A model generated the notes under the pieces. The model ran no database searches. It saw nothing but the letters and a program-made list of their open reading frames with translations, and had not been told where the DNA came from. A DNA stretch of 32,000 bases. It comes from Haloferax volcanii DS2 (GTDB lineage: Archaea > Halobacteriota > Halobacteria > Halobacteriales > Haloferacaceae). Shown piece by piece: positions 3,266-25,278 of this stretch; the first letter of the stretch is position 1, and every line of letters begins with the position of its first letter. The translations under genes were made by a program, and so were the position numbers. The stretch spans positions 2,130,001 to 2,162,000 of the forward strand of contig NC_013967.1 of NCBI RefSeq assembly GCF_000025685.1. Reading direction: 5' to 3'.

Positions 3266-3276
3266 ACACAACGGAG

Positions 3277-3417
3277 GTGAACCCAACGATAGAACACGAA
3301 ATCAACGAATGGACCAACAAAAACGGCCAACTGCTCGGAGCCTCAATCTTTCTGAGCCCAGAAGAAGTACGTCAGCTTCGCAACGGTGAACCAATACAGA
3401 TCACCGAACTCTCCTAA
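3277..3417 (+). CDS. Possible small protein (46 aa from GTG 3277, or 42 aa from ATA 3289)
   Basis: This is the acidic, protein-like tail (..NPTIEHEINEWTNKNGQLLGASIFLSPEEVRQLRNGEPIQITELS) of the otherwise R/P-rich artefact ORF 2791..3417. SD GGAGGTGA (3273-3280) lies 8 nt before ATA 3289, and an in-frame GTG is at 3277. Weak support. Confidence 0.3.
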   Translation: MNPTIEHEINEWTNKNGQLLGASIFLSPEEVRQLRNGEPIQITELS

Positions 3418-3441
3418 GCATTGGCAGAGTAAATTGTGAGG

Positions 3442-3837: not shown

Positions 3838-3898
3838 AGCGAACCTATAAAATCCTTAACCGCCGTTGCACATCAGGCCCACCATCATCTGCGAAAAA

Positions 3899-4122
3899 CC
3901 ACAGTACAGTAGTTAGTTGCTACCCGTTCCAGACCTGACCCAGAGCTACTGTTCGGGGCTGGATAACCTGATCAGGCCTGTTTCCAGACTGATTTTCAGG
4001 ACTGCCGATCCAGATCTGTACTGTTTCTAGGTTGATTTTCGGAGCCGAACTCTAATGAGAGTTGATGGTAATATCTGTCGTAGAGTATGTCCCGCGGTCA
4101 CTATCCGGATCTAGATCTGTAT
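3899..4122. repeat. Cluster of direct and inverted short repeats upstream of and into the MTase-HEPN gene
   Basis: CCTGTTTCCAGACTGATTTTCAGGA (3977-4001) matches ACTGTTTCTAGGTTGATTTTCGGAG (4020-4044) at 19/25 positions, with a 43-bp period. A partial third copy GTTCCAGACCTGA is at 3926-3938. ACAGTACAG (3901-3909) is inverted at CTGTACTGT (4016-4024). GATC.AGATCTGTA occurs at 4007-4020 and 4108-4121. Confidence 0.5.
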
Positions 4123-6648
4123 ATGATTTCTGAGGACTTGGAAGAGCTCTCTGAAGTAGAGTCGACAGATTTGCGGGACGATGGGGTAGTTATTGAAACT
4201 GAGGGACCGTCCTTCTATATCTTCCTCCCTGGCGGACCTTGTGAACAAACAAAACAGATTCCTGAAGTTGCAGATCGACTGTTGGTAGCCGTTCAAACTG
4301 GATTCTTGGAATTCCACGGAGAAGATATCCTGCTCTATGAGTTGGGAGAGGACCACGACTACGGAGAACTTATCAGACAAGTCTTGACCGGGGAGGCCGT
4401 ACACGTAGAATTAGAGAGCGAGGAGGCCTCAGAAACGCTGTCCGAAGCCGGTTACGTACACGGCTATACACCACAAGCTATTGCGGAAATCCTCACAGGA
4501 TGGGCAATAACATCAGAAAACGACTCCGTCCTTGACTTCGCTACAGGATCGGGAACTCTACTCAAACAAGCTGCGACCTACCTCGACAAAGAAGGCCGCT
4601 TGACCGGAGTCGAGATACATCCCTTTATCGCTAAACTGGTAAAAAGCAGAGTAAGAGGCATAGACAACGCGGAAATATTCAATGAGGACTTCTTCGATTG
4701 GAGAACACCCGAACAGCTAGAGCTGGGCGAAGAAACTCAGGGAGAACACTCTTCCGAGAAATACGATGCAGTCGTCGGAAACCCGCCGATAACGGGCTTC
4801 CTTCCGCCAGAGCAACGAGAGAAAATCAGTGAGTGGACTCAAGGTAGAAGGCCTTCGCTTGCTGCTGCTTTCGTCGCTAAGGCGGTAACTCATCTCAAAG
4901 ACGGTGGGCGTGGTGCATTCGTACTACCGAAGAAGGCCTTGAAAGACGGCCTCTTGGAACAACTCACTGAATCATGCAGCATCCATAGAATTGTAGAGCT
5001 TCCGTTGGGAGTCTTTGCAGATGCTCACTCAGTAGAATTAGTCGTTCTGACCATGGTCAAGGAGGAGCGTGATCCTCAAGTCAAGGAGACCGGGATCGGC
5101 CGATTCAACCAGATGGAACTCCCCGAAAACGCACGAGGCCTTTTCCAACAACCGCTAGACGCCATACTCGAAAACAGGTACAATCCATACGATGCTGAAT
5201 TGGCGAAGGCCTCTCACGCGGACTTGGAAGGAAGAAATGTCTTGAGGATACTTTCTAACCCGTCAATCTATGACATCATCACGTCTGAAGGCTTCACTAA
5301 GCTTGGTGAGCTCTCCGGAGTCGAGATTGGGAGCGGCGTGTCTACAGGCAATAACGATTTCTTCTACTTTGATCCAAGTGAGAAAGAGGAATCAGGTATT
5401 GATGAACGGTTCTTCCGTCCTGTCATCAAGAATCCTCCCAGCGATATACGTTCTATATCTGAGGAAGTGATCGATCTGTATCTGCTGGATCTTACTCAGT
5501 ACGTGGAAGAGTTGAGGAGTGACGGCGTAGAGGTTACAGAAGAGAGAGTGCTTGAAGAGCTGGAGAATGACGGCTACACAGAACTGGTCGAATATATTGA
5601 GGACAGTCCTCTTCATCATCAAGGAAATGGACTCTCGTTTACTCCGAACTATCTTGGCAAGTTCCAGAATCCGGACTTGATTATACCTGAGTTTTTCGAT
5701 GAGCCTGTCTGCTATACTGTTGAGTTAGATGATGCAGTGTTTGATTCGACGGTGATCGGAGTCCAAGTTGATAGGGAACAACGCAGGGATGCTTTAGCGC
5801 GGCTACTGAATACTCCTCTCTACAGAGAATTCTTCCAAACATACGCTGAATCAATGGACTTGAACTGGTACCGTATCAACATCACCCAGCTAAAAGAAAT
5901 CCCGATTATTGAGCAGGCATTGAATGAGGATACATTCGAGAGACTGGAGCCTTTCTTCCCTCCAGAAGACGACAACGACCTCGTCAACCTGAACCATCTT
6001 CTGATTGAAAGCTGTGAGACAGAAGAGGAGAAGCAGGCCTTACGACGGTACTTAGCTTCAAGAGACAACTTTGCCTGGTCCTGGTTCTTGACTCTGCCTG
6101 AGTTTGAGGAGTTCCAAGAGCTTCTTGAATCTGATCGTGACCAGGCTCAAGAGTTCGTGGTCGACCGGTTTGATCAAGAGCTTCTAGACCAAGCACGTCA
6201 GACCTTCCGGAACGTCGAATTCTTTGAAGGCAGACGAGAGCTTCTAGACGACCTTCTTATGGAGTTCGAAGAAGGCCATTACAGAGGTTTTCTCGCCGGA
6301 ATTGTACTACAGTTTGAAGGAGTCCTCGGCGACCTGGTGGAGGAGGCTGGTGGTGACATCGTCGAGGAGGACGGTAAGACCGAATTCAAGATGCCAGGAA
6401 AGAACCGGTCACAGAAGCGAAAGAACCTGGATAACCTGATTTCACAGTTCTTCGATGGCGTATTCAGCGAATACCTGCATCAAACGGTTAGACAACGCCG
6501 AAACAAGATAGCACATGGAGATGTGATCGAAGACAGCCGCACACTGTCAATACACTTCTTCGTCTCCTTCTACGCTCTCTGCAATGCCTGCTTGAACGAA
6601 TACGTACGAATAGCACAGCAACAAGATTCAGAAGCAGCAGCAATCTAA
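4087..6648 (+). CDS. N6-adenine DNA methyltransferase (gamma-class, Eco57I/PglX-type with TaqI_C-like specificity region) fused to a C-terminal HEPN domain
   Basis: 853 aa. The AdoMet motif I is VLDFATGSGTLL (nt ~4544-4573). Catalytic motif IV is VVGNPPITGF (4771-4800). A TaqI_C-like segment reads GVEIGSGVSTGNNDFFYF. The C-terminal HEPN Rx4H motif RNKIAHGD has R at 6499 and H at 6514, preceded by helix HYRGFLAGIVLQFEGVLGDLVEE. The start could instead be ATG 4123 (MISEDLEEL). Confidence 0.85.
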   Translation: MSRGHYPDLDLYMISEDLEELSEVESTDLRDDGVVIETEGPSFYIFLPGGPCEQTKQIPEVADRLLVAVQTGFLEFHGEDILLYELGEDHDYGELIRQVLTGEAVHVELESEEASETLSEAGYVHGYTPQAIAEILTGWAITSENDSVLDFATGSGTLLKQAATYLDKEGRLTGVEIHPFIAKLVKSRVRGIDNAEIFNEDFFDWRTPEQLELGEETQGEHSSEKYDAVVGNPPITGFLPPEQREKISEWTQGRRPSLAAAFVAKAVTHLKDGGRGAFVLPKKALKDGLLEQLTESCSIHRIVELPLGVFADAHSVELVVLTMVKEERDPQVKETGIGRFNQMELPENARGLFQQPLDAILENRYNPYDAELAKASHADLEGRNVLRILSNPSIYDIITSEGFTKLGELSGVEIGSGVSTGNNDFFYFDPSEKEESGIDERFFRPVIKNPPSDIRSISEEVIDLYLLDLTQYVEELRSDGVEVTEERVLEELENDGYTELVEYIEDSPLHHQGNGLSFTPNYLGKFQNPDLIIPEFFDEPVCYTVELDDAVFDSTVIGVQVDREQRRDALARLLNTPLYREFFQTYAESMDLNWYRINITQLKEIPIIEQALNEDTFERLEPFFPPEDDNDLVNLNHLLIESCETEEEKQALRRYLASRDNFAWSWFLTLPEFEEFQELLESDRDQAQEFVVDRFDQELLDQARQTFRNVEFFEGRRELLDDLLMEFEEGHYRGFLAGIVLQFEGVLGDLVEEAGGDIVEEDGKTEFKMPGKNRSQKRKNLDNLISQFFDGVFSEYLHQTVRQRRNKIAHGDVIEDSRTLSIHFFVSFYALCNACLNEYVRIAQQQDSEAAAI

Positions 6649-6662
6649 CTCCGATTTACGGC

Positions 6663-6690
6663 TATCGCCGGCGAATTTTTGCCGAAGCGA
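6663..6690 (+). terminator. Hairpin with T5 tract after the MTase-HEPN gene
   Basis: ATCGC-CGGC-gaattttt-GCCG-aa-GCGAT forms a 9-bp interrupted stem. The T5 run (6675-6679) lies in the loop rather than downstream. It begins 15 nt after the stop codon. Confidence 0.35.
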
Positions 6691-6759
6691 TGTAACCGGT
6701 GTTTTCATACCCCATAGATAAGAAAAGGTTGCTCAAGAAGACTACACACAGGATCGACA

Positions 6760-9700
6760 ATGAGTGTATCTGTTGACTTTGATAATATCAGACCTGTTGA
6801 AGACTCTCGGAGAAAGGGCTTTGAGGAGTTATGTAGTCAAGTTGCCCACGAATTCGAAGACGTACCCGATACCTGGAAATATACACGCATAGGTGATCCT
6901 GATGCAGGAATTGAATGTAAATGGGAGTCCACTGATGGATCTGTATGGGGCTGGCAGGCCAAGTATGTCGATAATATAGACAACAGTAGCTTGTCTCAAG
7001 TTGATCGCTCTGTAAAACAAGCTTTAGAAAACTACCCTAATCTGAGCCGATACTTCGTCTGTGTTCCCTGCGATAGGCCACACAGCCCCCGTGAAGGTGT
7101 TAAAACTGCTCTTGAGAAATGGAATGATCGAAAAGAGAAGTGGGAAGGATGGGCCGAGGACGAGGGGATGGACGTGGAGTTTGTTTTCTGGGGACAGTCT
7201 GAGCTTTTGGAGTTTCTCAGCCAGGACAAGCATAAAGGAAGGATATATTTCTGGTTTGATTCAGAGCAGCTCACCGATGCCAAGCTTCAGGATGAGATGG
7301 ATGTGTCTATTTCTAATGCAAAGGACCGTTACAGTCCGGAACTGCACGTAGATACGGGTAATGCAGATATTTTTGAGCCGTTAGGCCGGACGCCTACTTT
7401 TGAAGAAGAGGTGGAAGAGCTTCTTGAGGAATTAGACGAGAAAGCAGGTAAACTGTTCACGGAAAAGCGGGTTGAAGTCCTAGAAGAGGCCGACGAAGAT
7501 GCTACCCTAGATCTCCGCGAGTCAATAGACAACCTTCCTAATCTGCTTGAGGATGTTGAGCGAATCCCTGAGGATATCCCCTTATCAGAACTACGTGATA
7601 CCTGTGAGAAAGCAGAGGAGGCAATTCGGGAATTAGAACCCCAGCTTCGAACGCTCAAGGAAGAAGCGGATGCAGAAAAAGACGAAGTAGAAACCCTTGA
7701 GAAGTCCACTCTCTATGATTTCCGTCAACTTCGGAAAGCCGTTACTGGTTTGAAAAATCATATCGATAGTAATGATTTCCAGGCTGCTGAAGACGCCGCG
7801 TTGAAAGTACTTGGGGATGCGGGAGTGGGTAAAACCCATCTGCTCTGTAACGTTGCTAAGAATAGAACCGAGAAGGGTTATCCAACGGTTCTCCTCCTCG
7901 GTGAGAACTTCAGGGACAGAGATATCTGGACGCAGATTATGGAGCGACTGGGCTTAGATTGCACCACTGAAGAATTCCTAGGGGCCTTGGATTCATTCGG
8001 CGAATCCCGCGGTGTTCGATCTCTATTGATGATCGATGCCCTGAATGAAAGTTCAAATCCTCGAATGTGGAACCGGCAGTTGCCAGGCATTCTAAGCAAG
8101 TTAGAAAATTATCCTCATATCAGCTTGTGCGTCAGCTGCCGGACTGGTTACGAGGAACTCATATTCCCTGATAGTACAGAAGAACAGTTTGTTGAGACCC
8201 AGCACTACGGGTTCAATAACGTAGAATACGAGGCTGTAAGAAAATTCTTTAATGAGCATGGTATTGAGCACCAGTCGATACCAGTTCTACGACGAGAATT
8301 CCAGATACCCTTGTTTTTGAAATTGTTCTGCGAAAACTTGGAGAACCGCGGTCAAAGCCGGATATCCCACGGTCCAGAAGGCATCAGCGAGATCTTTGAA
8401 GGATACATAGATGCGGTACATGACCGGCTATATCGCCGGTTGGATTACGATCCGAGCGATAATAAGGTGAGAAAAGCAGTAGAGGCCTTGGCACGTGAGA
8501 TGGCTAAGAAGGGAGAAGGCATGAAGAGGCTTCCTCGGAGTGAAGCAAAGGAAATCGTAGACGACCTATTACCGGGAAGAACCTACTCAGAAAGCCTTTA
8601 CAAAAATATTCTGAGTGAAGGGGTTATCTCAGAGGTAGTCCCCTTTGAGGAGGATGCAGAGGAGGCCGTCCGGTTCTCCTACGATAAATTTGCAGACCAC
8701 AAAATAGCTCAACAGTACTTAGAGCTCTACGTGGATGACGATATTGAGGAAGCTCTTTCAGAGACAGAGGAGCTACAGGAGATCTTTGAGAACCCAGAAC
8801 TGTACGCTGGGCTCATACAGGCCTTGTCTATCCATCTCCCTGAGAAGAAGGATGCAGAAATATTTGATTTTGTAGATTCAGAAGATATACTCAATCCATT
8901 CATTAAGAGCTTAGCTTGGCGGAATCCGGATACGTTGACAGATAGTGATGGAGAATTTAGTGAGGAGGTTGAAGATTATCTCTGGGAAGAGCTGGAGCTT
9001 CTTGATGACCTGCATGAGCTTTGGAGAGTCTTCCTTACATTGTCTACAAGCTCTGATCACCCGCTGAATGCTGAGTACCTTGATGAGGTTCTCAAAGACA
9101 AGGAAGTATTTAGGCGCGATTTCAATTGGTCCAAGTTCCTGCATGAAGAGTGGAGAGAAGATACGTCTGAGGTGTACCGATTAGTCAACTGGGGATTCTC
9201 TTTAGAAAATCGGCCTGTGGAGTCGTACGAACTGAAGCGGTTAATGTCGATTACTCTCTCCTGGTTCTTTTGCTGTCCAAACAGACATGTTAGAGACCGG
9301 TCGACAAAGGCTATAGTCAATGTCGTAGACTCTGATCTTGAACTCTACAGTGAGTTGGTTGAGCGTTTCCAAGATGTTACTGATCCATATATTTTGGAAC
9401 GGGTCTATGCAGCAGCTTATGGCGGAGTTCTCCGACATAAACAGGATGAAGCAGTTACTGACGTTGCCGAGACCGTGTACGAATTAGAATTTGAGGACAA
9501 CGACCCGACTCCTCACCAGCTCTCAAGAGATTATACGAGAGGGATAATCGAGGTGGCTAACCGTTTGAATGACGGGTTCGACGTTGAGATGGAGAATGTG
9601 AGGCCTCCTTATGACAGTTCTTTCTCTATCGATGTTCCTTCGTCTGATGAGCTTCGTGAGCAAGTTGAAAGCGTCTTAGAGGACTCTGATACTGATTTGA

Positions 9701-10953
9701 ACTCGCGGTTTTGGTGGGGGCTTGTAGGTTCTGACTTTGAAGGACGTGGACACAGTGATTTTGCTCGGTACATTGTTGGAACGAATCATAGTCCTTCTGA
9801 CGTCCATGGTTACGATTTCTCCGGAGAGAAGGCGCTTCGTTGGATTACCAAGCGAGTATTTGACTTGGGCTGGAGACCTGATCTTTTCGGATCGTTCGAT
9901 GACTTTGTCAACCGGAGCTATATGGGTAGGATGGAGAATCGAAAACCGGAGCGGTTCAGTAAAAAATACCAGTGGATAGCCTATCACGAATTGGTGTCTT
10001 GGGTTACGGATAACTGTGATTTCACAGGTTCAATTACAGAACGGCCGTATAATGGGCCTTGGATGCAATTTGACCGGGATATTGACCCTTCGGTACTAGA
10101 TCCTCAAGCTGATTCCGACGTTTCGTTAGATGAGGTTGTAGAATATGATTGCCGTATAGATGAGACTGATTTAGAGGAATGGATTTCAGACCACGAGGAG
10201 TTCCCTGACTTGGTTTCCTTGTTAGATATTTCCGTGGATGGTGAGAGATGGATACCTCTGCATGGTATTTATAAGTGGAGAGCAGACGAGGGCGAAGACT
10301 CCAGACTTGAGAGAGACGTTTTTGCCCGGATAGATACTGTTACAGTAGCTACTGAGAAGAAGGACGAATTGGTGTCTTGGTTAAAGGAGGACTGGGTTGA
10401 TAGCGATGAGCTTGAGAGCACTCCGTTCCACTTGGCTACATTTACTCAGACTTTCTGGGCGGAATATCCCTGGCACCCTTCGATAGAGGAGGGCTGGGAA
10501 GAAGACGTAGATTCTATCCGAGGAGCACCGGTTTCTACGACAGACACCACTGTTGATTTACTCTGGGAGTCAGAGTATGACTGTTCCGTGGACGAGAATT
10601 ATGGGATGTATGCTCCGTCCCCCCCACTTGCGAAATCGCTCGATCTCGAATGGGTAGTTGATTCAAAGGAATTCGTGCAAAAAGGTTCTAACCCTGTTCG
10701 TGTAGCCGATGTGTCTACTTCCGAAGGGTTGTACGACAGAGTGAACTCGCTTTCAATGTTAGCAGCAAGTGAAGGGATAATCGAAGAGTTAGAGGAAGAA
10801 GAGCTTTCCTTGGTTTGGATTATACAAGGAGAGAAACGGCTACTTACTGATGATGCTGCAGGAACCGGAATGGGTCTTAGTCAGATTAGAGCAGTCTACT
10901 ATCTAGACGAAGGAGAGTGGACGGGAGAAATGGACAGCGGTTACTACAACTGA
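6760..10953 (+). CDS. Giant STAND/NACHT-like P-loop NTPase with N-terminal PD-(D/E)xK-type nuclease-like domain and ~900-aa C-terminal putative sensor region (Avs/NLR-like architecture)
   Basis: 1397 aa. The N-terminus reads GFEELCSQVAHEF...GDPDAGIECKWES..WGWQAKY (nt ~6891-6965), giving an E...D...E-x-K / Q-x-K pattern. An acidic coiled coil follows. Walker A is LGDAGVGKTHLL (nt ~7811-7846), Walker B is LLMIDALNES (~8024-8053), and ISLCVSCRTGY is sensor-1-like, as in NACHT hhhTSR. Confidence 0.85.
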   Translation: MSVSVDFDNIRPVEDSRRKGFEELCSQVAHEFEDVPDTWKYTRIGDPDAGIECKWESTDGSVWGWQAKYVDNIDNSSLSQVDRSVKQALENYPNLSRYFVCVPCDRPHSPREGVKTALEKWNDRKEKWEGWAEDEGMDVEFVFWGQSELLEFLSQDKHKGRIYFWFDSEQLTDAKLQDEMDVSISNAKDRYSPELHVDTGNADIFEPLGRTPTFEEEVEELLEELDEKAGKLFTEKRVEVLEEADEDATLDLRESIDNLPNLLEDVERIPEDIPLSELRDTCEKAEEAIRELEPQLRTLKEEADAEKDEVETLEKSTLYDFRQLRKAVTGLKNHIDSNDFQAAEDAALKVLGDAGVGKTHLLCNVAKNRTEKGYPTVLLLGENFRDRDIWTQIMERLGLDCTTEEFLGALDSFGESRGVRSLLMIDALNESSNPRMWNRQLPGILSKLENYPHISLCVSCRTGYEELIFPDSTEEQFVETQHYGFNNVEYEAVRKFFNEHGIEHQSIPVLRREFQIPLFLKLFCENLENRGQSRISHGPEGISEIFEGYIDAVHDRLYRRLDYDPSDNKVRKAVEALAREMAKKGEGMKRLPRSEAKEIVDDLLPGRTYSESLYKNILSEGVISEVVPFEEDAEEAVRFSYDKFADHKIAQQYLELYVDDDIEEALSETEELQEIFENPELYAGLIQALSIHLPEKKDAEIFDFVDSEDILNPFIKSLAWRNPDTLTDSDGEFSEEVEDYLWEELELLDDLHELWRVFLTLSTSSDHPLNAEYLDEVLKDKEVFRRDFNWSKFLHEEWREDTSEVYRLVNWGFSLENRPVESYELKRLMSITLSWFFCCPNRHVRDRSTKAIVNVVDSDLELYSELVERFQDVTDPYILERVYAAAYGGVLRHKQDEAVTDVAETVYELEFEDNDPTPHQLSRDYTRGIIEVANRLNDGFDVEMENVRPPYDSSFSIDVPSSDELREQVESVLEDSDTDLNSRFWWGLVGSDFEGRGHSDFARYIVGTNHSPSDVHGYDFSGEKALRWITKRVFDLGWRPDLFGSFDDFVNRSYMGRMENRKPERFSKKYQWIAYHELVSWVTDNCDFTGSITERPYNGPWMQFDRDIDPSVLDPQADSDVSLDEVVEYDCRIDETDLEEWISDHEEFPDLVSLLDISVDGERWIPLHGIYKWRADEGEDSRLERDVFARIDTVTVATEKKDELVSWLKEDWVDSDELESTPFHLATFTQTFWAEYPWHPSIEEGWEEDVDSIRGAPVSTTDTTVDLLWESEYDCSVDENYGMYAPSPPLAKSLDLEWVVDSKEFVQKGSNPVRVADVSTSEGLYDRVNSLSMLAASEGIIEELEEEELSLVWIIQGEKRLLTDDAAGTGMGLSQIRAVYYLDEGEWTGEMDSGYYN

Positions 10954-10966
10954 AACAGGGCGGCAG

Positions 10967-11383
10967 TTAGATCTTCTTCTGAATCTGCTTCTTAAACAAC
11001 CTGAATGATCCCTTTAGTTCCTCTAACTCATCTTCAACAGTCTTCACCCGCTCGACAACCTCACGGTGACTCAAATCCTCGTACTCAGTCATACTCTCTG
11101 GCTCCGACTGCTCCAAGTACCGGTGGGCTTTCCCCGTGAGCTTTGCTTCTTTGGGGTGTTGGAAGACTCTTTTTTGGCCGTCGATAACCCGCTCTACCAT
11201 CTTATCTGGTTTCTCTACGGTGATTAGGCCTAGATCTTCCAGTTTTTCGAAGCAGTAGGAGACGTGGTGGTTTTCGAGTGTGGTTTCTGCGGTGATTTTC
11301 TGGACGTCGTCGAGGCCTTTTTCGATGTGTTTCAGGACGACGTGGTCCTTGTCCCGTATCTCCTCGAATTCTTCTTCAGTCAT
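10967..11383 (-). CDS. Winged-helix (MarR/ArsR-like) DNA-binding protein with C-terminal coiled coil; last gene of the T4SS-like operon
   Basis: 138 aa. VLKHIEKGLDDVQKITAETTLENHHVSYCFEKLEDLGLITVEK...KLTGKAHRYLE fits a wHTH pattern. ATGA overlap with the upstream ATPase gene. Confidence 0.75.
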   Translation of the reverse strand: MTEEEFEEIRDKDHVVLKHIEKGLDDVQKITAETTLENHHVSYCFEKLEDLGLITVEKPDKMVERVIDGQKRVFQHPKEAKLTGKAHRYLEQSEPESMTEYEDLSHREVVERVKTVEDELEELKGSFRLFKKQIQKKI

Positions 11384-13299
11384 TCTCCTTCAAGTAGGAC
11401 GCATTGCTGTTCGAGTTCGGTGCAGAATCCTTCTTCGTCGCGGTGTAGGCAGAAGGCCTCTAAGTCGTCACGGCTGTTTGCATCGAGTTCTGGGCATTCT
11501 GGTTCGACAGCTTCGTTGTGTACTTCCAAGTTGTCTTCTTTGACTTCGATTACCCGGTATTCTGCTTCTTCTAGTTCTTCGAATTGGGTGAAGGCCTCGC
11601 TGTTTTCGTCGGTGTAGTAGCTGTAGCTGCCTTGTTCGTCGTTGTATTCGTTGCCGCGGCGGTTTTTGGGGTCGTCGACGATGTTCTGAAGTTTCGCTGC
11701 TTTCCCCTGCTGGACGACGTAGAAGACTTCGCGGTCTTCTTCGACGGCTCGTTTGAGGTTGCGTAGGACTTTGACGGGCCGGGAGAGTGTGCTGTGTTCT
11801 GCTTCGAGGTGTGCGATCTCTCCGTTGGGGAGGTGTACGTGGCCGTCTGGTTTGTTGTCGCCTGTGTCTTGGTACAGTAGGTTGACTTGGAAGCCGCGTT
11901 CCTCCAGTTGTTTCTTGGCTTGTGCGAGGAGTTCTCGGTGTTTGTCTCCGCCGGCGTTGTTTCCTTTTCCGAGGCTTTGGGAGGCCTTGATTTGGGCTTT
12001 TGTTTGGGTGGTTGCGGCGGTGCCCTGTTTTTTGAGTTTGTCGATGTCGGTGTTTTCGGGTTTCCAGGGTGGGTAGGTGTTGAAGAGTACGGCGGAGTTG
12101 TGGCTTTGTTTGCTGGGTTTCTGGACTGCTGCCCGGAACTTGCCTAAGGCTTTGAGCTGGTTTTTGGAGAGGCCTTGGAACATTCCGGCGATCTGGGTTT
12201 CGTTTTCGCTGCCACTGGGGTTGAAGGTGATTTTGGTGCGGCAGTTGTTGACGACTGCTCTCCGCATGTCGGTTGCGAGTTGTTGGAGGTATTGTGTGGC
12301 GAGCCAGCACCCTAAGCGGTATTCTCTGGCTTCGCTGAGTATTTTGGTGAAGTTGCTGCCTTCGCCGCCGAAGTTCTGGAGTTCGTCGACGTAGAGGAAG
12401 AAGGGTGTGCGTTGTTCGACGGGCTGGGTGACCCGGCTTTGTGTTGCGGCCCAGATTTTGGTGGTGACGATGCTTCCGACGAGTTGGGAGACTGTTTCTC
12501 CGACTTCGCCTTTTTGGATGTCGACGAGGAGGATTTTCCCTTGGTTGACGACGTCGCGGAAGTTGACTCCGGATTGTTCTGGGCCGATCACTTTCCGGAT
12601 GGTGGGGTTCATCACGAAGTCGTTTAGCCGGCGCTGGAGAGGTTCCATCTCATACGAGGTCATGTCCTCTTTGACGCGGACGAGTTGCTCTCGGATGATC
12701 TGGTCGTCGGTGTCGTCGATCAGCTCGGTGAGCTGGTCTTGGTTGACGACGCATCGGAAGACGTCGAGCAAGCTGTTTCCCTGATTCTTCTGGATGTTGA
12801 GGTCGAGGTGGGCCCGCAGGAGGGTTTCGAGGACTCTTCCGAACTGGTCACCCCAGTTCTCCGACTGGCGTTTGAACAGGTCGATGAGGTCGGAGACGAT
12901 GATCTCTTTCTGGTTCTCTCGCTGGGCCTCCGACATTTCCTCGGTGATGTGAGGTTCGAGGACGTTGATCGGTGTAACCGGGTCTCTAGCTGGATTGATG
13001 TAGACGACGTCGTCTCTCCTGTTTTCGGGTAGTTTGGAGAGGAATTCGTCTATTAGGTCGCCTTTCGGATTGATGATTGCGAGGCCGTGGTCTTTCTCTG
13101 CGTCCTGTAATGCGACGTGTATCAGTAGCTGCGTTTTGCCGTATCCGGTGGGGCCGACGTTGAGGACGTGAGTGAGGCGTTTTTCGTCGTCTACTCCGAT
13201 GTTTTCTTCGACGCCGAGGTTGCTTTCACGGCTGCCGAGATAGGTGGTGTTCAGGTTGCCTGTGCTCTGTATCAGGTTCTGGGTTTCTTCGGGGTTCAT
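11380..13299 (-). CDS. Conjugative coupling-protein-like ATPase (FtsK/HerA superfamily; VirD4/TraG/TcpA-like) with C-terminal restriction-endonuclease-fold-like domain
   Basis: 639 aa. Walker A is NVGPTGYGKTQL, followed by LAIINPKGD. Walker B is FFLYVDELQNF, and WLATQYLQQL is also present. The C-terminus reads GGDKHRELL...DGHVHLPNGEIAHLEAEHS...LRNLKRA. No N-terminal TM segment. 4-nt overlaps on both sides. Confidence 0.8.
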   Translation of the reverse strand: MNPEETQNLIQSTGNLNTTYLGSRESNLGVEENIGVDDEKRLTHVLNVGPTGYGKTQLLIHVALQDAEKDHGLAIINPKGDLIDEFLSKLPENRRDDVVYINPARDPVTPINVLEPHITEEMSEAQRENQKEIIVSDLIDLFKRQSENWGDQFGRVLETLLRAHLDLNIQKNQGNSLLDVFRCVVNQDQLTELIDDTDDQIIREQLVRVKEDMTSYEMEPLQRRLNDFVMNPTIRKVIGPEQSGVNFRDVVNQGKILLVDIQKGEVGETVSQLVGSIVTTKIWAATQSRVTQPVEQRTPFFLYVDELQNFGGEGSNFTKILSEAREYRLGCWLATQYLQQLATDMRRAVVNNCRTKITFNPSGSENETQIAGMFQGLSKNQLKALGKFRAAVQKPSKQSHNSAVLFNTYPPWKPENTDIDKLKKQGTAATTQTKAQIKASQSLGKGNNAGGDKHRELLAQAKKQLEERGFQVNLLYQDTGDNKPDGHVHLPNGEIAHLEAEHSTLSRPVKVLRNLKRAVEEDREVFYVVQQGKAAKLQNIVDDPKNRRGNEYNDEQGSYSYYTDENSEAFTQFEELEEAEYRVIEVKEDNLEVHNEAVEPECPELDANSRDDLEAFCLHRDEEGFCTELEQQCVLLEGE

Positions 13300-14267
13300 G
13301 GCTGAGCGTTTTGGATGTTGTCCTGTTTCCGATTCGGGAGTGAGAGAAGAGCTGAGAGCTCGTCCTTGGTAGCCTGGAATTTCTGGCTCCAGCCCTGGAA
13401 CTCTCTACGTTGGACTGCCTGTGCGAAGGAAAGAATCTGGCTGCGGCGGAACGGTGTTACCGTGGTCGCGTTCAGGTACTGGCCTGTTTCCGGGTTTTCG
13501 TAGGTGTTGAACGCTCCGGAGATCTCTTTAACTCTGCTAGGCGTGTACTCGGCTGCATTGATGATGAGCAGCCTGATCGAGACGTGGAATCGGGGGCTGC
13601 CAGCCTTGTTCTCGATTGCGTCTGCCTGTTTCTTTTCCCGCGGTGTTGGAGGCCTTGACCCCCAGAGTTTCTCTTTCTCTCTCCGCAGGTGGCCGATTCG
13701 CTGGTAGGCCCGTTTCCGCCAGTAGTAGCGACGTAGAGGTTGGCCGATAACCGGTCGGAAGAGGATCTGGATTACGAACCGGGTGTTCTGCATTGCGTGG
13801 CGGTGGAGTGCTGCGACTACCGAGTCCACCGGTGGTTGGTCGAAGCTGGTCTTCAGTGGGTACCAGTCGGTTCTTCCCGCGGTGAGCAGGCCGCCGCCTA
13901 CAGTATCCTCTTCACGGATTGGTAGGCCGTTGACTCCTTCTTTGAGTTCGACGTGTGGTGTGTCGTTTGTGAGGTGTGTCCGGATTTTTCGTTCGAGGCG
14001 TTTAGTCGGGGCTGCGTACTGGAACTGGAGTTTTCCGGGTGTGGTGCGGCGGATTTCGTACGCTATGGTCGGTGACGTGTTTTTCAGGCCGAGGTACTTG
14101 GTCTGGTATTCGAGTACTCCATCTGCCAGGTTTTGCAGCTTGCTCGGTGTGTCTTCGTCTCTCGGTGGCCGGGCTTCGACGGTGTACGGCAGTTTGGTTA
14201 CCCCCGTAGCCAAGTTCTCTGCCGTGTCTTCGTCGAGCTCGGCGTGGTTGTACCGGAGAACGGTCAC
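13296..14267 (-). CDS. Hypothetical protein of the T4SS-like operon (basic central segment)
   Basis: 323 aa. GTGA and ATGA overlaps with both neighbours. No motif I can name. Confidence 0.7.
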   Translation of the reverse strand: MTVLRYNHAELDEDTAENLATGVTKLPYTVEARPPRDEDTPSKLQNLADGVLEYQTKYLGLKNTSPTIAYEIRRTTPGKLQFQYAAPTKRLERKIRTHLTNDTPHVELKEGVNGLPIREEDTVGGGLLTAGRTDWYPLKTSFDQPPVDSVVAALHRHAMQNTRFVIQILFRPVIGQPLRRYYWRKRAYQRIGHLRREKEKLWGSRPPTPREKKQADAIENKAGSPRFHVSIRLLIINAAEYTPSRVKEISGAFNTYENPETGQYLNATTVTPFRRSQILSFAQAVQRREFQGWSQKFQATKDELSALLSLPNRKQDNIQNAQP

Positions 14268-14617
14268 GGTTCTAGGGCGAGTATTTCTTCGTTCTCGTGA
14301 TTGTTCTCCAGTTCTTGGACCTGTTGCTGCATGGCTTGGGCCATCATCTGGTTCTGACCTTCCAGGGATTGGGCGAGCTCCTGCATTTTCTGCATAAGGG
14401 CCTGTGTTTCCTGGAATTCGGCCTTCATTTTCTGCATCCGTTTCTGGGCGAGAGCTTGGAAGAGCTGTTCTAGGTTTTGGGATTGGACTTGTTGCGGGGT
14501 GCTGTGTTGGAGTTCGTTGATGTCGATTTGGATGTCTCCGCTTCCTTGGGAGACGACTGTGACGTCGGTGTTTCCGTTCTGGTTCGAGATCTGGATTCGG
14601 GTTTTCTGGTGGTTCAT
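14264..14617 (-). CDS. Gln-rich coiled-coil protein
   Basis: 117 aa with a Q/M-rich heptad-like C-terminal half (QALMQKMQELAQSLEGQNQMMAQAMQQQVQELE). 4-nt overlaps with both neighbours. Confidence 0.65.
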   Translation of the reverse strand: MNHQKTRIQISNQNGNTDVTVVSQGSGDIQIDINELQHSTPQQVQSQNLEQLFQALAQKRMQKMKAEFQETQALMQKMQELAQSLEGQNQMMAQAMQQQVQELENNHENEEILALEP

Positions 14618-16380
14618 TGTTCGATGAGTCTGTGTTCGGTCGGGGTTGCGTGTACGCGGATTTTGGCGTCGAGGCGTCCGCTGACTTTCATTACGGCTTC
14701 TGAGTACTGTGCGTCGGTTCCTGTTTTGAGGTCGTAGAGATCGATCTCCTCCTGTTCTGAGAGCTGGAAGTGGTCGATCATTTCTTGGCTGACGCGTTCG
14801 TGGCGGAAGAACAGCTTTCCGGGCATCTGGTCGAGCAGGGTTCTCCCCTCTGTGTACTGGGTGAAGTCGTTGGCCGACTGGCTGACCAGTGTGATTGCGG
14901 TAGAAGTGTCTCGTGCTTCTCTCACCCAGCGGGTCAGGATTTCTCGGCCTCGGCCCACACCTGACACGTTGTGGGCTTCATCGGCCACTACCAGGGTCCG
15001 CCGATCATTTTGGCTGGTAACCTGGTAGAGGTGTTCGATCAGGTCGATGATCTCCGGGATGTTCTCTGATTGGCCTCTTGAGGTGACTTGGAAGCAGGAG
15101 GCCTTACCTAGTTTTTCTGGCCGGTCTTGTACGGTGTAGGTTTGGCCGTTGAGGGCTTTGATGAGGTTGTGGTACTCGTTTTTCGGGTCGATGACGATTA
15201 TCTGGATGTCGGGGTATGCGAGGATGGCTCGGAGGAGTTCGATTTTGGTGTGGAAGGTTTTTCCTGAGCCGGTGGCTCCGAATCTTGCGAGGTGGGGTGC
15301 GTGCCACTGGAAGCGATCTTGAAGTATGGGTGTGCCGTCGTATTGATCTTCTCCGTAGATGATTCCGGATGACTGGTTGATTGTCCGGGTGGCGAATGGG
15401 AATCCAGCAGCGGCGGAGTCACTGAGCTGTAGCTGGGTCTCCTGTAACGGGTCGAGTTGAAGCGGGTTGCAGGCCTTCTGTGCTTGATCGGTTCTGAAGA
15501 CAGGTTCCTCAAATCCGATGCCCATCCGCTTTAACCGTGATTTGAGTTGTTGGAAGGCTTGGTTGCAGTCTTCCTTGTTGTCTGCGTGGGTGGAGATGTA
15601 GACGGCGTAGTCGAAGGCCTGTTGCTCCCTGTTGGCAAGTTTGTCGAGCATCCAGTCAACGGCGTCGAGTTTGGATTCGAGTTCGTTGGTGTCAAGGAAG
15701 CCGGATGCAAGCCGGGAGTTGATCTCGGCGTTCAGCTTCTCTTTCAAACGGTTGAGTGTGGAGACGGTGTTAGCGGAGTCTCTTGGTTTGATGAGTTGAG
15801 CTACGTCGATTTTGCCATCGACGCGGAGAAGTTCCAAGGGCCAGGCCAGTTCCAGCTGACTAGGGTATTCAGTGATTATGAGTGCCCGCCGGTATTCCTG
15901 TCCGGTGGAGACGTACCGAGGTGTTGGGTTGCTGTGAGAGGTTTCGAGTTCTTCGGCAGGGATTTCCGTTGCGGAGAGGTTAGCGGTGTTGAGTGAGTCG
16001 GTAATCTGTTGGGTTCTCCGCTGTACCTCACTCTCTAGATCCTCCCTGGTTTCAGAATCCAGTACCGAGGCGAGGAATCCTCGGCCTGATGCGGTGACTG
16101 GTGTAGTGATGTAGTGTTCAGTGGTGACGAGTGATTCGTCGTTGAGACGGCTGCAGTACCTGAGATAATCCTCCCAGAGCTCCCTACGGATGGAGAACCG
16201 GTCTTTCAGGTATTCGGCGTAGGGCTGAAGCTCTAAATCGCGTTGCAGCGAGTAGATGTTGATTGGGTAGTCGGCCTGATTCAGAACCTGTTTGAAGTTC
16301 TGATGGACTCCTAAAGCCTCCTTCTCAGTCATCAGCTCCAAGTTTGTCGGCGTAACTTGGATCGCTCCGTACTGTGTCAT
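14614..16380 (-). CDS. VirB4/TrbE/PrgJ-like type IV secretion ATPase
   Basis: 588 aa. Walker A is RFGATGSGKTF, followed by IIVIDPKNEY. Walker B is TLVVADEAHNV, and ITLVSQSANDF is present. The N-terminal domain (GAIQVTPTNLELMTEKEA..) resembles VirB4 N-termini. Confidence 0.85.
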   Translation of the reverse strand: MTQYGAIQVTPTNLELMTEKEALGVHQNFKQVLNQADYPINIYSLQRDLELQPYAEYLKDRFSIRRELWEDYLRYCSRLNDESLVTTEHYITTPVTASGRGFLASVLDSETREDLESEVQRRTQQITDSLNTANLSATEIPAEELETSHSNPTPRYVSTGQEYRRALIITEYPSQLELAWPLELLRVDGKIDVAQLIKPRDSANTVSTLNRLKEKLNAEINSRLASGFLDTNELESKLDAVDWMLDKLANREQQAFDYAVYISTHADNKEDCNQAFQQLKSRLKRMGIGFEEPVFRTDQAQKACNPLQLDPLQETQLQLSDSAAAGFPFATRTINQSSGIIYGEDQYDGTPILQDRFQWHAPHLARFGATGSGKTFHTKIELLRAILAYPDIQIIVIDPKNEYHNLIKALNGQTYTVQDRPEKLGKASCFQVTSRGQSENIPEIIDLIEHLYQVTSQNDRRTLVVADEAHNVSGVGRGREILTRWVREARDTSTAITLVSQSANDFTQYTEGRTLLDQMPGKLFFRHERVSQEMIDHFQLSEQEEIDLYDLKTGTDAQYSEAVMKVSGRLDAKIRVHATPTEHRLIEQ

Positions 16381-16628
16381 AGGTACCTCCCGGCGAGGAA
16401 CCGGATACTGCGGATGATGTGGTGGTCCAGCGGCTGGCTAAACGGCCTTACAGCGTAGAGAATGGCCCCGAGCAACAGAGCCAGAACGAGGTAGATGTAG
16501 GCGTCTGTGAGAACCGCTGCTGTTGCTACGGGCAGAGCAAGTCGGAGTACATCCTTCCAAGTGAACCGGCCGAAGAACTGCATAGAGACGTCTTCAACCG
16601 TTCCAGGGAACTGGAAGCGAGGTTTCAT
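16377..16628 (-). CDS. Small 2-TM membrane protein, VirB3/PrgI-like by position and topology
   Basis: 83 aa. FFGRFTWKDVLRLALPVATAAVL and YLVLALLLGAILYAV are hydrophobic segments. It lies immediately upstream of and overlaps the VirB4-like gene. Confidence 0.6.
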   Translation of the reverse strand: MKPRFQFPGTVEDVSMQFFGRFTWKDVLRLALPVATAAVLTDAYIYLVLALLLGAILYAVRPFSQPLDHHIIRSIRFLAGRYL

Positions 16629-17704
16629 CGTAGCCGCCTCCGGAAGTCCTCAACTCGGCCTGTGGTCTCACTGTTCGCTCTCTTCCTCTGATTTTCTCGG
16701 AGACGCTGACGTTGATCAGCCGTGAGACCAGGGCCGTTCTCTGAGGAATCGCCGCCGCTATCCATGCTATTGGAGATGGTGTGTGCCTGGCCTACGGCTG
16801 TCTGTGAGGCCGTCCAGATCTGGTATGGAACGAGAAGTAGGAGTGTGAAGGATGCGACTCCGAACATCCAGTTAGACACGCTTTGAAGACCGCTGTTGCC
16901 TGCTCCTCGAAGTAGTGAGAGCGAGAATTTGAGGACGAGGACGTCCGCTGGCCCGATCAGTAGGGCGGCGAACCAGCCAGCTATGAATGTGTCTGCGTAC
17001 CGCCTGGCTTTGGGCAGGCTCCACATTACGGCCAGCAAGGGACTGACTGCGGCTCCGAACAAGATGTAGACGTTGCGGATGAGGAATAGGGCGACGACTG
17101 CGAGTAGGAGAACTGATTCGACTACCCATGCGATGACTAGGCCTGTTGAGAGGCCTGCTACTTGCTGGATGTTCTGGATTTCAGGTGTGAATGCGTGGGT
17201 GAAGGCGTTGGAAAGGTCGACTGCGTACTGTAGGAGGGGGAGTGAGAGTGTGGCGAATATGAGTGCGGCGACGAGCCGGGGCAGTGTTTTCCGGGCTTGG
17301 TTGTAGGAGATGTTGAGGATCGGGCCGATGATGTAGAGTATGCCGGTGGCTGCGAATCCGAGGCCTGCTATAACGTATGATATGATGAGTGTGTCCTGAT
17401 GGACGTCGGATACAGCAGGGTTCGGATGGACAGTTGGCGTAGTGGTGAGGACGGTGATGAGTACGCCGAGTAGGACTTCTGCGAGTTTTCGGAACGGCCA
17501 GAAGATTATGTCCGTGATTGTCTCTCCGAGAGTCTTGCCCTGGGTGAAGTCTTGGATTGTGTCGATTAGGTTTTGAATCCCGTTTAGAATCCCACTGTTG
17601 TCCTCGTCTTCAGTAGGAGTTGTAGTCGTGTTTTCTTGTGCGGAGACGGGTGTAGCTACTAAGGTGAGGGCGATCAGGCCGACAAAGATGATTCTCCGGT
17701 TCAT
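16625..17704 (-). CDS. Polytopic membrane protein with signal peptide, VirB6/TrbL/PrgH-like by topology
   Basis: 359 aa. The signal sequence is MNRRIIFVGLIALTLVATPVSAQE. It has at least 6 hydrophobic helices and a charged R-rich C-terminal tail. Confidence 0.65.
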   Translation of the reverse strand: MNRRIIFVGLIALTLVATPVSAQENTTTTPTEDEDNSGILNGIQNLIDTIQDFTQGKTLGETITDIIFWPFRKLAEVLLGVLITVLTTTPTVHPNPAVSDVHQDTLIISYVIAGLGFAATGILYIIGPILNISYNQARKTLPRLVAALIFATLSLPLLQYAVDLSNAFTHAFTPEIQNIQQVAGLSTGLVIAWVVESVLLLAVVALFLIRNVYILFGAAVSPLLAVMWSLPKARRYADTFIAGWFAALLIGPADVLVLKFSLSLLRGAGNSGLQSVSNWMFGVASFTLLLLVPYQIWTASQTAVGQAHTISNSMDSGGDSSENGPGLTADQRQRLRENQRKRANSETTGRVEDFRRRLR

Positions 17705-21826: not shown

Positions 21827-22816
21827 TTGATTCAAGCACAAGACTATGTTTTCGACGATTTAGACGAATTGTATGAAACCGCGGAAAGAGTTCCTGAGGT
21901 GGATAGGCACGACGTATACGCTCATAACGAAGGATCGGATGAGTGGGAGCAGATTCCGTATCGTGACTCGTTGTGGACTGATGATGGGAGAGCGACGGGC
22001 GTAGTCTCCAGCAGCCAAGATTTCTACAACGTTATTCAGTACGGCGATATCTTGGAGACAGTAGGTGACGCCGTCGAAAGGCACGGTATCGAGCCCTCCG
22101 GCAGGGTTTCGATCTCTCCGACAGCCCACAAGATGAGCGCCAAACTCGACTTCGATCAAGAGGTCTACGCAAACCAAGACGATCCTATCGATCTCGGATT
22201 ACAGATTCAAAGCGGACACAGCGGGTTCCACGGACTGAAGTACGATATCGGAGCCGAACGCCAAGTCTGTTCAAATGGGATGACGGCCTTCATCTCCGAA
22301 CTCGGCTTCGACCAGACACACGGCGAACCATTCCAACCCGGCCTAGCATACAACGCCGTCGACGCAGTGGTCGAATCCCCAGCAGAGATCGAACAGAGAC
22401 TAGCACAGGCCCAGAACCGTGAATTGATGAATCAAGACGAGGCCCTGCTCGTGTTGATGGAGTCCGGAGTCGGCCGATACCTGGAAGACCCTGTTCCAGA
22501 CCTGCTTAACGCGTTATACGATGAGGTAGATGATCCGGAGGCCCCGACACTCTGGGAGACGTATAACGCGGCTACACGCGCACTAACACACTACACCCAG
22601 GACGTCCCAGACTATGAGCTAGCGAACGGCTTTGAGCAAGCAGCCCAACTCTTGGAAACCGGGGGTAATGAGATTCCGGAGCCAGAGCAACTGGGTCGTA
22701 GAGCTGTAGACAGCCGTAGCCGCCAGTTAATCGAACAGGGAGATACGGAGCCGTACTGGCCGGATGAAGAGCAAACCCTGAGAGAACTGATGGAAGCCCA
22801 CGAGCTCCAAGCATAG
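21827..22816 (+). CDS. DUF932-like (phage/plasmid-like) protein
   Basis: 329 aa. FYNVIQYGDILETVGDAVERHG ... LGLQIQSGHSGFHGLKYDIGAERQVCSNGM matches the DUF932 pattern (Y..vqn.e.......; sHDGs......R.vC.N) as I recall it. The start is TTG 21827 or ATT 21830, with GGTGGT at 21819-21824. Confidence 0.75.
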   Translation: MIQAQDYVFDDLDELYETAERVPEVDRHDVYAHNEGSDEWEQIPYRDSLWTDDGRATGVVSSSQDFYNVIQYGDILETVGDAVERHGIEPSGRVSISPTAHKMSAKLDFDQEVYANQDDPIDLGLQIQSGHSGFHGLKYDIGAERQVCSNGMTAFISELGFDQTHGEPFQPGLAYNAVDAVVESPAEIEQRLAQAQNRELMNQDEALLVLMESGVGRYLEDPVPDLLNALYDEVDDPEAPTLWETYNAATRALTHYTQDVPDYELANGFEQAAQLLETGGNEIPEPEQLGRRAVDSRSRQLIEQGDTEPYWPDEEQTLRELMEAHELQA

Positions 22817-23550: not shown

Positions 23551-25278
23551 ATGAATTACTCTTTAGATGAGGTTAGGCGGTTTGTTGGCGGGATTCCGCG
23601 TCTACTTGTTTTAGCTACTATCGTATTTCCACTGTCTGGTGTCTTAATCGGCTATTTCACTGGTTTTGGTGCTTCTCCAGCGAATACAAGATTATTCTTG
23701 AGTGGGTTGGCAGGTGCTCAAGCAGGAGTTCTTGCTATCGTTTTCTCCGTGGCAGTTATTGGGATTCAGCTGATTTCGACCCGCTATTCACCGCGAATGA
23801 TTTCACTTTTCACGGACTCACCGATATTCATCTACACCTTCTGTCTCTTCGTGCTATCCGTTGCCCTTGATCTCGGTCTCCTCTACAATGTCCCCCTGAA
23901 CTCAACACGTGTATTTTCAGCTGGTATTGGTGCGGCCTCTGGTCTTGCGACAACCGCGGCGGTCGGATTGTTTGTCTTCGTGAGAACCGCTATACGTCAG
24001 AGTACACCGGATGGTGCAATTGATGCGTTTGTATCGGGAATGACTTCCACGAAATACTTGGAACGGGTGAGAGAGTCTGTAGAAAGCGAGTCTGAGGTTG
24101 CTCATCCGATGCATCCGCTGTACAATTTGGCGATGAATGCACTGTCCAGTGGGGAGCGCGTTACCGCCGAGAAGGCAGTTCAAGAATACGGTGATTTGGT
24201 CCGGTCTATAATCTTGGAGTTGGAAGAACGGAACACGTTCGAGGACGAAGAAAATCAGGTTCGGAGGAAATTGTTCAAGCCTGTATTCAAGGAGCATCTA
24301 CACGATATTGCCTTACACGCTGAAGAGCAGAATGAAAACCAGATAGTTAGCAACGCCATCGAATGGCAGTATGAGCTCGGAAAGGAAGGACTCGATCTTG
24401 AGATCGATAGAATAGCGCGTCAGGCCCAGTTTGGAATGTCAGACGTACTTCGAGATGCACCTCTCGAAACAGGCTCATACATTTCAAGCAACAACGCTTG
24501 GGAACAGATCGGTCAGTTCCTCGTCGACGCTTCAGACAAGCCTGCTCCCAGAATCGCTCGAAACACTGCTTCCTCCATTGAGACGAATATCAGCTCCTAT
24601 CAGCTCCATAAAATCAGTGACGCACGCTGGTATAGCCACTCAATGATGCGGCTCTACAGCAAAATGGAGGATGCTCAAGAAGCACTCCTTGACCACTATG
24701 CCGAAGACGTCGCCAACGTCGATATGGAATGGCAGTATGAACACGTCCCTGACGACATCCACAATCGAGAAGAGGTCTATTCCGTATTCGAGTGGAGAAA
24801 CACTCTGCTAAGCACTACAGCGTCTTTCCTCCAATACGCAATTGAAGAAGGCCAGTACCCGATTACAGACGGGAATTTCAAAGACAGTTGGCAGAACATC
24901 TGCGTTGAAGCATCGAAAACACCTGCCGAGGACTACGCAGTCACACTCTGTCAGGCCCTAATTGAGATAGCTGTAATTGACCGGAATCACGTCGAAGAGA
25001 CAGGTATCCCTTGGAGCTCCAGTATCGGCCGAGTCAAATACAACGGCAACCCAGACATCGTTGACAAAGCCTTCGAACGAATCCTCCAATACGACTACGT
25101 CGAAGAAGAACCAGGCCCTCTCTTCGCCGGAGAAATGGAAGAACACCGTCAAACATACTATGAAAGTCAACTGAACGTCCAAGGCACACCAACACTGAAC
25201 AATAGGTCTGATTTCCCCGAAGAGATAGAAGAGATTCGAAGAGAGGCCGATGAGAGATGGGAGAAGCTCGAAGACTAG
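23551..25278 (+). CDS. DUF2254-like membrane protein (4 N-terminal TM helices plus ~400-aa soluble domain)
   Basis: 575 aa. TM segments are LLVLATIVFPLSGVLIGYF, GVLAIVFSVAVIGIQLI, IFIYTFCLFVLSVALDLGLLY and GIGAASGLATTAAVGLFVFV. IQLISTRYSPRMISLFTDS resembles the DUF2254 Q..S.q.SPR motif as I recall it. Confidence 0.75.
   Translation: MNYSLDEVRRFVGGIPRLLVLATIVFPLSGVLIGYFTGFGASPANTRLFLSGLAGAQAGVLAIVFSVAVIGIQLISTRYSPRMISLFTDSPIFIYTFCLFVLSVALDLGLLYNVPLNSTRVFSAGIGAASGLATTAAVGLFVFVRTAIRQSTPDGAIDAFVSGMTSTKYLERVRESVESESEVAHPMHPLYNLAMNALSSGERVTAEKAVQEYGDLVRSIILELEERNTFEDEENQVRRKLFKPVFKEHLHDIALHAEEQNENQIVSNAIEWQYELGKEGLDLEIDRIARQAQFGMSDVLRDAPLETGSYISSNNAWEQIGQFLVDASDKPAPRIARNTASSIETNISSYQLHKISDARWYSHSMMRLYSKMEDAQEALLDHYAEDVANVDMEWQYEHVPDDIHNREEVYSVFEWRNTLLSTTASFLQYAIEEGQYPITDGNFKDSWQNICVEASKTPAEDYAVTLCQALIEIAVIDRNHVEETGIPWSSSIGRVKYNGNPDIVDKAFERILQYDYVEEEPGPLFAGEMEEHRQTYYESQLNVQGTPTLNNRSDFPEEIEEIRREADERWEKLED

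Follow-up and report, generated by a model that had tools for sequence, protein, structure and literature searches.

The stretch considered here is a 32,000-nucleotide (nt) window of the main chromosome of Haloferax volcanii DS2 (NC_013967.1, positions 2,130,001 to 2,162,000 of the forward strand), and the positions given below are counted from its first letter. Its principal feature is HVO_2276, a gene whose product is supported by homology as an antiviral STAND NTPase of the Avs2 (AVAST type 2) family and which is located on Halfvol4, a 53.7-kb integrated element with a GC content of 50.1% against 66.7% for the genome (PMC12091111). The gene and the parts of its product, with amino acid (aa) positions and the basis of each assignment, are as follows.

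6760..10953, + strand: the complete Avs2 gene HVO_2276 (UniProt D4GVZ2), 1397 aa plus stop; open reading frame (ORF) list, exact-sequence look-up, PADLOC and PMC12091111.
6760..7269, + strand: predicted N-terminal PD-(D/E)xK (Mrr-like) nuclease effector, aa 1-170, with candidate catalytic residues E22/E23, D48, E52 and Q66-A-K68; AlphaFold2 model, Foldseek, profile alignment and invariant residues.
7270..7779, + strand: acidic helical extension, aa ~171-340, boundaries approximate; aligned to the EcAvs2 structure 9o4e from residue 165 onward.
7780..8439, + strand: STAND NTPase module, aa ~341-560, C-terminal boundary approximate; motifs, conservation and alignment to the EcAvs2 ATPase.
7813..7836, + strand: Walker A motif GDAGVGKT, aa 352-359; motif position.
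8023..8052, + strand: Walker B motif LLMIDALNES, aa 422-431; motif position.
Within the same module, + strand: VSCR, aa 458-461, with R461 as sensor arginine; motif position.
8440..9789, + strand: alpha-helical TPR-like sensor arm, aa ~561-1010, including D1000; unbroken alignment to 9o4e as far as residue 1034.
9790..10950, + strand: C-terminal sensor domain, aa ~1011-1397; phmmer, residue mapping, conservation and full-length coverage by the PADLOC model PDLC02162.

The ORF of the initial annotation is confirmed by the ORF list, running on the + strand from an ATG at 6760 to a stop codon that ends at 10953 and encoding 1397 aa, and it is beyond chance because of its length in DNA of ~47% GC. 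The region has a GC content of ~46-48% and the encoded protein is very acidic in composition. Exact-sequence look-up identifies the protein as D4GVZ2 / ADE03084.1, encoded on the 2,847,757-bp H. volcanii main chromosome, and an identical copy is present in 186 blocks of the assembly collection. The NCBI label is 'NACHT domain-containing protein' only, and the gene has been named Avs2 in the literature (PMC12091111); its identity as Avs2 is already known, being assigned by PADLOC-type tools and published, as annotation only. The protein is expressed: mass spectrometry recorded 14 spectral counts for it in a caesium chloride gradient fraction of a provirus-containing delta-oapA control strain, and none in a strain without Halfvol1-4 (PMC12091111).

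Assignment to Avs2 rests on matches along the length of the protein. All six PADLOC Avs2 models match HVO_2276; the best-scoring, PDLC02164, gives 1459 bits (E=0) over aa 3-1011, and PDLC02162 gives 867 bits over aa 4-1384, equivalent to model positions 2-1360 of 1379. The EcAvs2 structure (9o4e_A), the single Avs2 structure solved, matches at E 1.5e-129 in two stretches, aa 171-1050 and 1021-1391. In that structure the chain runs from an N-terminal effector through a large helical extension to a STAND ATPase, which assembles as a flat C4 tetramer, and on to an elaborate TPR domain and a beta-rich C-terminal sensor, the last two jointly holding the ATPase domain of the terminase and a bridging ATP (PMC13601566). 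These matches, together with NCBIfam, sharpen to Avs2 what had been proposed as an Avs-like protein. Per-domain profile and structure searches, suggested at the outset as a check, identified the domains through PADLOC, 9o4e and the combination of AlphaFold2 and Foldseek, and Pfam alone was sub-threshold or empty.

The effector of EcAvs2 is uncharacterized, and most Avs2 homologs use an Mrr-like nuclease (PMC13601566). In HVO_2276, aa 1-170 are supported as a predicted PD-(D/E)xK nuclease of that type, the end of the domain (aa ~170) being placed where relatives with an HNH-type N-terminus diverge. An AlphaFold2 model built on a 35-sequence alignment (predicted local distance difference test, pLDDT, 89.1; predicted template modelling score, pTM, 0.83) has a core in the order alpha-beta-beta-beta-alpha-beta (helix 17-30, strands 40-43, 53-56 and 62-67, helix 75-91, strand 95-101), with E22/E23 on helix 1, P47-D48 and E52 before or at strand 2, and Q66-A-K68 on strand 3. 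E22, E23, D48, E52, Q66 and K68 are invariant in the alignment. Foldseek comparison of the model of aa 1-180 with the Protein Data Bank (PDB) returns the EcAvs4 nuclease domain 8dgf first (E 2.4e-5, probability 1.0, TM 0.61), followed by EcoO109I, NucS/EndoMS, SfsA, Card1 and LmuA, all nucleases of the restriction-endonuclease fold. The N-terminal restriction-endonuclease-like domain read earlier from the motifs FEEL (aa 21), GDPDAGIECKW (~aa 45-55, PDAG at 47) and WQAKY (65), all of which are in place, is thereby borne out, and the model adopts the PD-(D/E)xK fold on which that reading had been staked.

Profile search with the domain recovers 8dgf at E 0.012 and aligns E22 with E22 of EcAvs4, E52 with E49, and Q66-x-K68 with Q63-x-K65; Q63 and K65 are reportedly the positions that Gao et al. 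(2022) changed to abolish EcAvs4 activity. With aa 1-180 as query, phmmer found no meaningful PDB sequence match, and sequence searches of sub-regions found no Pfam match in this part, including Mrr_cat; the assignment needed the structure model, Foldseek and the profile search together. The missing PDB match for aa 1-170 is explained by EcAvs2 having a different effector. Almost every bacterial Avs2 protein recovered carries the same nuclease domain (E 1e-38 to 1e-60).

The segment at aa ~171-340 had been described as an acidic coiled coil. Its acidic character stands; the segment corresponds to the helical extension of EcAvs2, and Pfam coiled-coil matches in it are sub-threshold only. In EcAvs2 this extension, between effector and ATPase, is large and lies close to the terminase (PMC13601566). 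In HVO_2276 its conservation is the lowest of all segments (median identity to bacterial Avs2, 22%).

The reading of a STAND P-loop NTPase is supported. GDAGVGKT, LLMIDALNES and VSCR stand where they had been noted, and K358 of Walker A, D426, N429 and E430 of Walker B, and R461 of VSCR are the same in all 119 aligned homologs. The accompanying label 'NACHT' could not be established: Pfam NACHT (PF05729) reaches 15.1 bits where the cut-off is 26.7, its match being confined to aa 350-376, the P-loop, and NB-ARC scores 19.2 bits against 23.5. Filing the domain as NACHT is rejected on these unmet thresholds. The other Pfam matches, AAA_22 and IstB, are weak and generic, AAA_22 being below its cut-off.

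The remaining ~900 aa had been left without a nameable motif. That description holds for Pfam, which finds no domain there in scans of the whole protein and of three sub-regions, and it fails at the level of homology, for the region corresponds to the TPR domain (the name is taken from PMC13601566) and C-terminal sensor of 9o4e. The sensor alone matches 9o4e residues 1099-1478 at E 1.8e-23 (phmmer). The nine published EcAvs2 positions at which the terminase or the bridging ATP is contacted were mapped onto HVO_2276.

EcAvs2 D981, HVO_2276 D1000: conserved; bridging-ATP/Mg contact.
EcAvs2 R1132, HVO_2276 R1057: conserved.
EcAvs2 E1362, HVO_2276 E1270: conserved.
EcAvs2 E1364, HVO_2276 E1272: conserved.
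EcAvs2 E1444, HVO_2276 E1358: conserved.
EcAvs2 T1128, HVO_2276 R1052: changed.
EcAvs2 R1130, HVO_2276 M1055: changed.
EcAvs2 E1462, HVO_2276 Q1375: changed.
EcAvs2 W1266, in a deletion in HVO_2276: lost.

Five of the nine are thus kept, and all five are fixed within the haloarchaeal clade described below. Four of them (D1000, R1057, E1270 and E1358) occupy positions conserved family-wide, D1000 being invariant in the 119 homologs. These residues support a conserved binding pocket, without proving the ligand. The sensor target had been called unknown; membership of Avs2 predicts, by analogy, the ATPase domain of the large terminase.

HVO_2276 belongs to a compact haloarchaeal clade (58-94% identity) whose other members come from Haloferax massiliensis, a Natrialbaceae isolate, Halococcus, Halogeometricum, Natrialba and several metagenome-assembled genomes (MAGs); outside it, identity is at most 38%, to Avs2 proteins of bacteria and to a single protein from a 'Helarchaeota' MAG. 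The full-length conservation of the clade points to purifying selection. Median identity to bacterial Avs2 is 45% in the nuclease, 45% in the NTPase, 35% in the TPR arm and 30% in the C-terminal sensor. Exact-sequence context look-ups for the H. massiliensis protein (cluster P0011) and the Natrialba taiwanensis protein (P0026) gave no match.

Eleven haloarchaeal Avs2 clusters (P0014-P0022, P0025 and P0026), including those of Halococcus sp. AFM35 and N. taiwanensis, carry an HNH_2 (PF13391) endonuclease in place of the Mrr-like nuclease. They share 59-76% identity with HVO_2276 in the NTPase, TPR and C-terminal sensor and 47-58% in the helical extension, and the junction is clean, just upstream of the conserved 'QLTD.KL...SISNAKDRY.PELHVDT' (~7260-7270 in the window, aa ~170). 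Judged from these alignments, the two kinds of N-terminus represent effector swapping inside one tight archaeal clade. In two further haloarchaeal clusters, P0012 and P0013, identity to HVO_2276 is 70% across the NTPase and TPR and 54-60% over the other body segments, but only 48-49% in the nuclease, which resembles the bacterial type ('ECYWKLPSG'); this suggests replacement of the effector by a domain of the same fold but distant origin. P0023 (Halogeometricum borinquense C499_09072, 1263 aa) starts at the equivalent of aa ~137, without the nuclease domain, which may reflect truncation or a wrongly called start. P0024, at 1486 aa, is 89 aa longer than HVO_2276, has a precomputed HHH_5 (PF14520) match, and is 41% identical in the C-terminal sensor.

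With a probability that we put at roughly 75%, HVO_2276 would follow the canonical Avs2 cycle of terminase sensing, tetramer formation, nuclease activation and abortive infection. As defence cargo on an element bearing type IV secretion system (T4SS) genes, the protein would use the pocket formed by its TPR arm and C-terminal sensor to bind the large terminase ATPase domain of a tailed halovirus, probably with a bridging ATP. Binding would free the STAND NTPase to form an ATP-bound tetramer, which would bring four N-terminal PD-(D/E)xK nuclease domains together and so activate them, and the activated nuclease would degrade DNA, leading to cell death or arrest before virus release. The trigger, oligomeric state, nuclease activation and defence phenotype in this scheme are inferred by analogy with bacterial Avs2, Avs3 and Avs4.

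Among the genes that surround HVO_2276 on Halfvol4, the following were delimited in the window.

4087..6648, + strand: HVO_2275, an 853-aa N6-adenine methyltransferase, N6_Mtase/Eco57I-like, matching PADLOC MTase_II and mad2.
11380..17704, - strand, and 21827..22816, + strand: conjugation-type genes for a VirD4/TrwB-like coupling protein, a DUF8128 protein, a TraC/VirB4-like ATPase and a TrbL-like protein.
23551..25278, + strand: a 575-aa protein with an N-terminal DUF2254-like membrane domain; overlaps the next gene.
25250..27352, + strand: a 700-aa HerA/DUF87-type ATPase, matching PADLOC mad8 (E 4.8e-23), HerA and DndH.

HVO_2275 ends 111 bp upstream of the Avs2 gene on the same strand. It has a weak TaqI_C specificity domain at aa 562-607 and a C-terminal region of ~240 aa without assignment, and a cognate nuclease is not evident; it could be an orphan methyltransferase, a type IIG-like remnant or part of an unrecognized system. 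Farther upstream lie an HsdS/RmeS gene, a 166-aa ORF and a tyrosine integrase. The type I restriction-modification system and the methyltransferase beside HVO_2276 constitute a defence-island context. HVO_2275 and Avs2 were considered as a conserved pair, which was rejected; they are neighbours in a defence island rather than one system, because the gene directly upstream of Avs2 is not a methyltransferase in any of three other haloarchaeal loci. At one locus (L005) a methyltransferase is encoded ~7 kb from Avs2 on the opposite strand.

Downstream of HVO_2276, on the opposite strand, are a small winged helix-turn-helix protein and the T4SS-like block, which includes a pilin-like gene called in locus L001 and has a DUF932 protein nearby. 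The overlapping pair at 23551..25278 and 25250..27352 may be a further two-gene defence or DNA-translocation module on Halfvol4. A MADS-like system composed of HVO_2275 (as mad2) and the 700-aa ATPase (as mad8) was rejected, the two genes being 19 kb apart with the T4SS block between them and their similarities being those of generic methyltransferases and HerA-like proteins.

The proposal that the gene resides on an archaeal mobile element is upheld by the GC contrast of Halfvol4 with the genome and by its integrases and T4SS genes. Halfvol4 has been called a defective provirus, its circularization was not detected, and none of its proteins resembles viral proteins (PMC12091111). Given the conjugation-type genes and the lack of virus-like proteins, it looks closer to an integrated conjugative element than to a provirus. 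A megablast search of the plasmid collection with the HVO_2276 gene gave no match, so the element is taken to be chromosomal and not a catalogued plasmid. Base composition varies along the window, from ~44-46% GC at 1-2 kb and 18-21 kb, through 46-48% over Avs2, to 52-56% over the T4SS block at 11-18 kb, and this mosaic suggests that Halfvol4 was assembled from modules of different origin.

In Halococcus sp. AFM35 (L003, contig JBNTJU010000021.1; positions are those of L003) an HNH-type Avs2 at 8001-12044 directly adjoins T4SS-like genes at 1-7699, as on Halfvol4, among them TrbL_3, a 1572-aa TraC-like protein with HHH_5, and DUF8128. Two further loci (L004 and L005) have no T4SS genes, and the neighbours there are an integrase, a resolvase, an MmeI-like methyltransferase, a helicase and Orc/Cdc6. 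Mobile islands of several types therefore seem to carry Avs2 as cargo among haloarchaea.

Several observations weigh against the canonical cycle. The NCBIfam Avs2 equivalog NF041813 scores 921.3 bits (E 1.2e-276), under its curated cut-off of 1000, and the match spans model positions 1-831 of 1317 only (aa 184-1014). The shortfall arises because the divergent C-terminal sensor of HVO_2276 goes unscored, and the narrowly missed cut-off is probably why the NCBI name stops at a NACHT domain. That sensor is ~30% identical to its bacterial homologs, and four of the nine EcAvs2 interface residues differ in it, including W1266 in a deletion, so specificity could differ. Literature searches yielded no functional work on HVO_2276 or on an Avs from any archaeon; HVO_2276 appears there as annotation only. 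Because pleolipoviruses are not known to have a terminase, H. volcanii has yet to provide a natural test case, HFPV-1 being a pleolipovirus. HFPV-1 is the only virus known to infect this species (PMC12091111). In addition, KpAvs2 and EcAvs2 are also activated by the non-terminase proteins Ksap1/2 (PMC13601566).

The last of these points, taken with the altered interface and the low identity of the sensor, is what favours a retargeted haloarchaeal Avs2, in which the sensor would recognize a protein other than terminase while oligomerization and nuclease activation remained unchanged. The ligand could then be a Ksap-like protein, a protein of a pleomorphic or archaea-specific virus, or one belonging to a competing plasmid or conjugative element; the occurrence of HVO_2276-type genes on T4SS-type elements in two genera makes competition between mobile elements plausible. 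Tailed haloviruses, however, encode canonical TerL ATPases. The pocket residues most conserved across the family are all kept in HVO_2276, and the sensor type of Avs2 is reported in the literature to be clade-specific. Retargeting is accordingly judged unlikely, and a slightly smaller chance is given to the more specific version in which a diverged haloarchaeal sensor recognizes a protein particular to archaeal viruses or mobile elements in a multi-molar-salt cytoplasm. If this more specific version held, HVO_2276 would become the first NLR-like pattern-recognition receptor of archaea to have a distinct ligand, and its host is a model archaeon amenable to genetics.

It is quite improbable that the gene is a decaying relic on a defective element, its reading frame intact but its role in defence lost. 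The defective status ascribed to Halfvol4, the undetected circularization and the modest NCBI label are consistent with such a history. Against it, the 1397 codons are uninterrupted, all catalytic and nucleotide-binding residues are intact, the protein is detected by mass spectrometry, and full-length orthologs persist in several genera. That HVO_2276 is a non-defence STAND or AAA+ protein, such as a regulator or maintenance factor of a conjugative element, would accord with the weak, generic Pfam matches (AAA_22, NB-ARC and IstB) and the adjoining T4SS genes, but is scarcely credible in view of its end-to-end homology to the Avs2 models and EcAvs2 structure, the nuclease effector it has in common with Avs4, and the presence of the gene in other haloarchaea in islands without T4SS genes.

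The practical value of HVO_2276 is that of a test case, for the genetics of H. volcanii are mature, a strain without Halfvol4 exists, and the protein is expressed. It is a convenient choice for functional work on an archaeal Avs, which would apparently be the first of its kind, and bears on whether NLR-like sensing of terminase also covers viruses of archaea and functions in a cytoplasm of high salt content. It might also account in part for the refractory behaviour of H. volcanii towards tailed viruses.

Among known systems, bNACHT proteins and eukaryotic NLRs share with HVO_2276 a P-loop STAND NTPase with a GxxxxGK[ST] Walker A motif and a Walker B motif followed by a conserved N/E, as well as the tripartite layout of effector, NTPase and sensor; the sub-threshold NACHT and NB-ARC scores, restricted to the P-loop region, and the lack of any match to the PADLOC bNACHT models set HVO_2276 apart from bNACHT. 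EcAvs4 (8dgf) provides the closest solved structure to the nuclease domain, with a weak NCBIfam Avs4 match at aa 16-103, but NCBIfam Avs4 gives 15.6 bits for the whole protein where 1500 is the cut-off, its ATPase and portal-sensing TPR are not the closest relatives of those in HVO_2276, and D48 lies opposite a non-acidic EcAvs4 residue. EcAvs2 (PDB 9o4e; Evans et al., 2026, PMC13601566) is homologous in the helical extension, STAND ATPase, TPR arm and beta-rich C-terminal sensor, and its Walker motifs match; it differs in an effector that does not align to the Mrr-like aa 1-170, and HVO_2276 is 87 aa shorter, has the acidic composition of a halophile, and has W1266 in a deletion. The bacterial Avs2 proteins with an Mrr-like nuclease (PDLC02162/02164; NF041813) share the five-part architecture end to end and the invariant E/D/E/QxK set, whereas HVO_2276 is archaeal and its haloarchaeal clade is set apart by an identity gap; its architecture is the standard one of the family, with no domain novel or missing.

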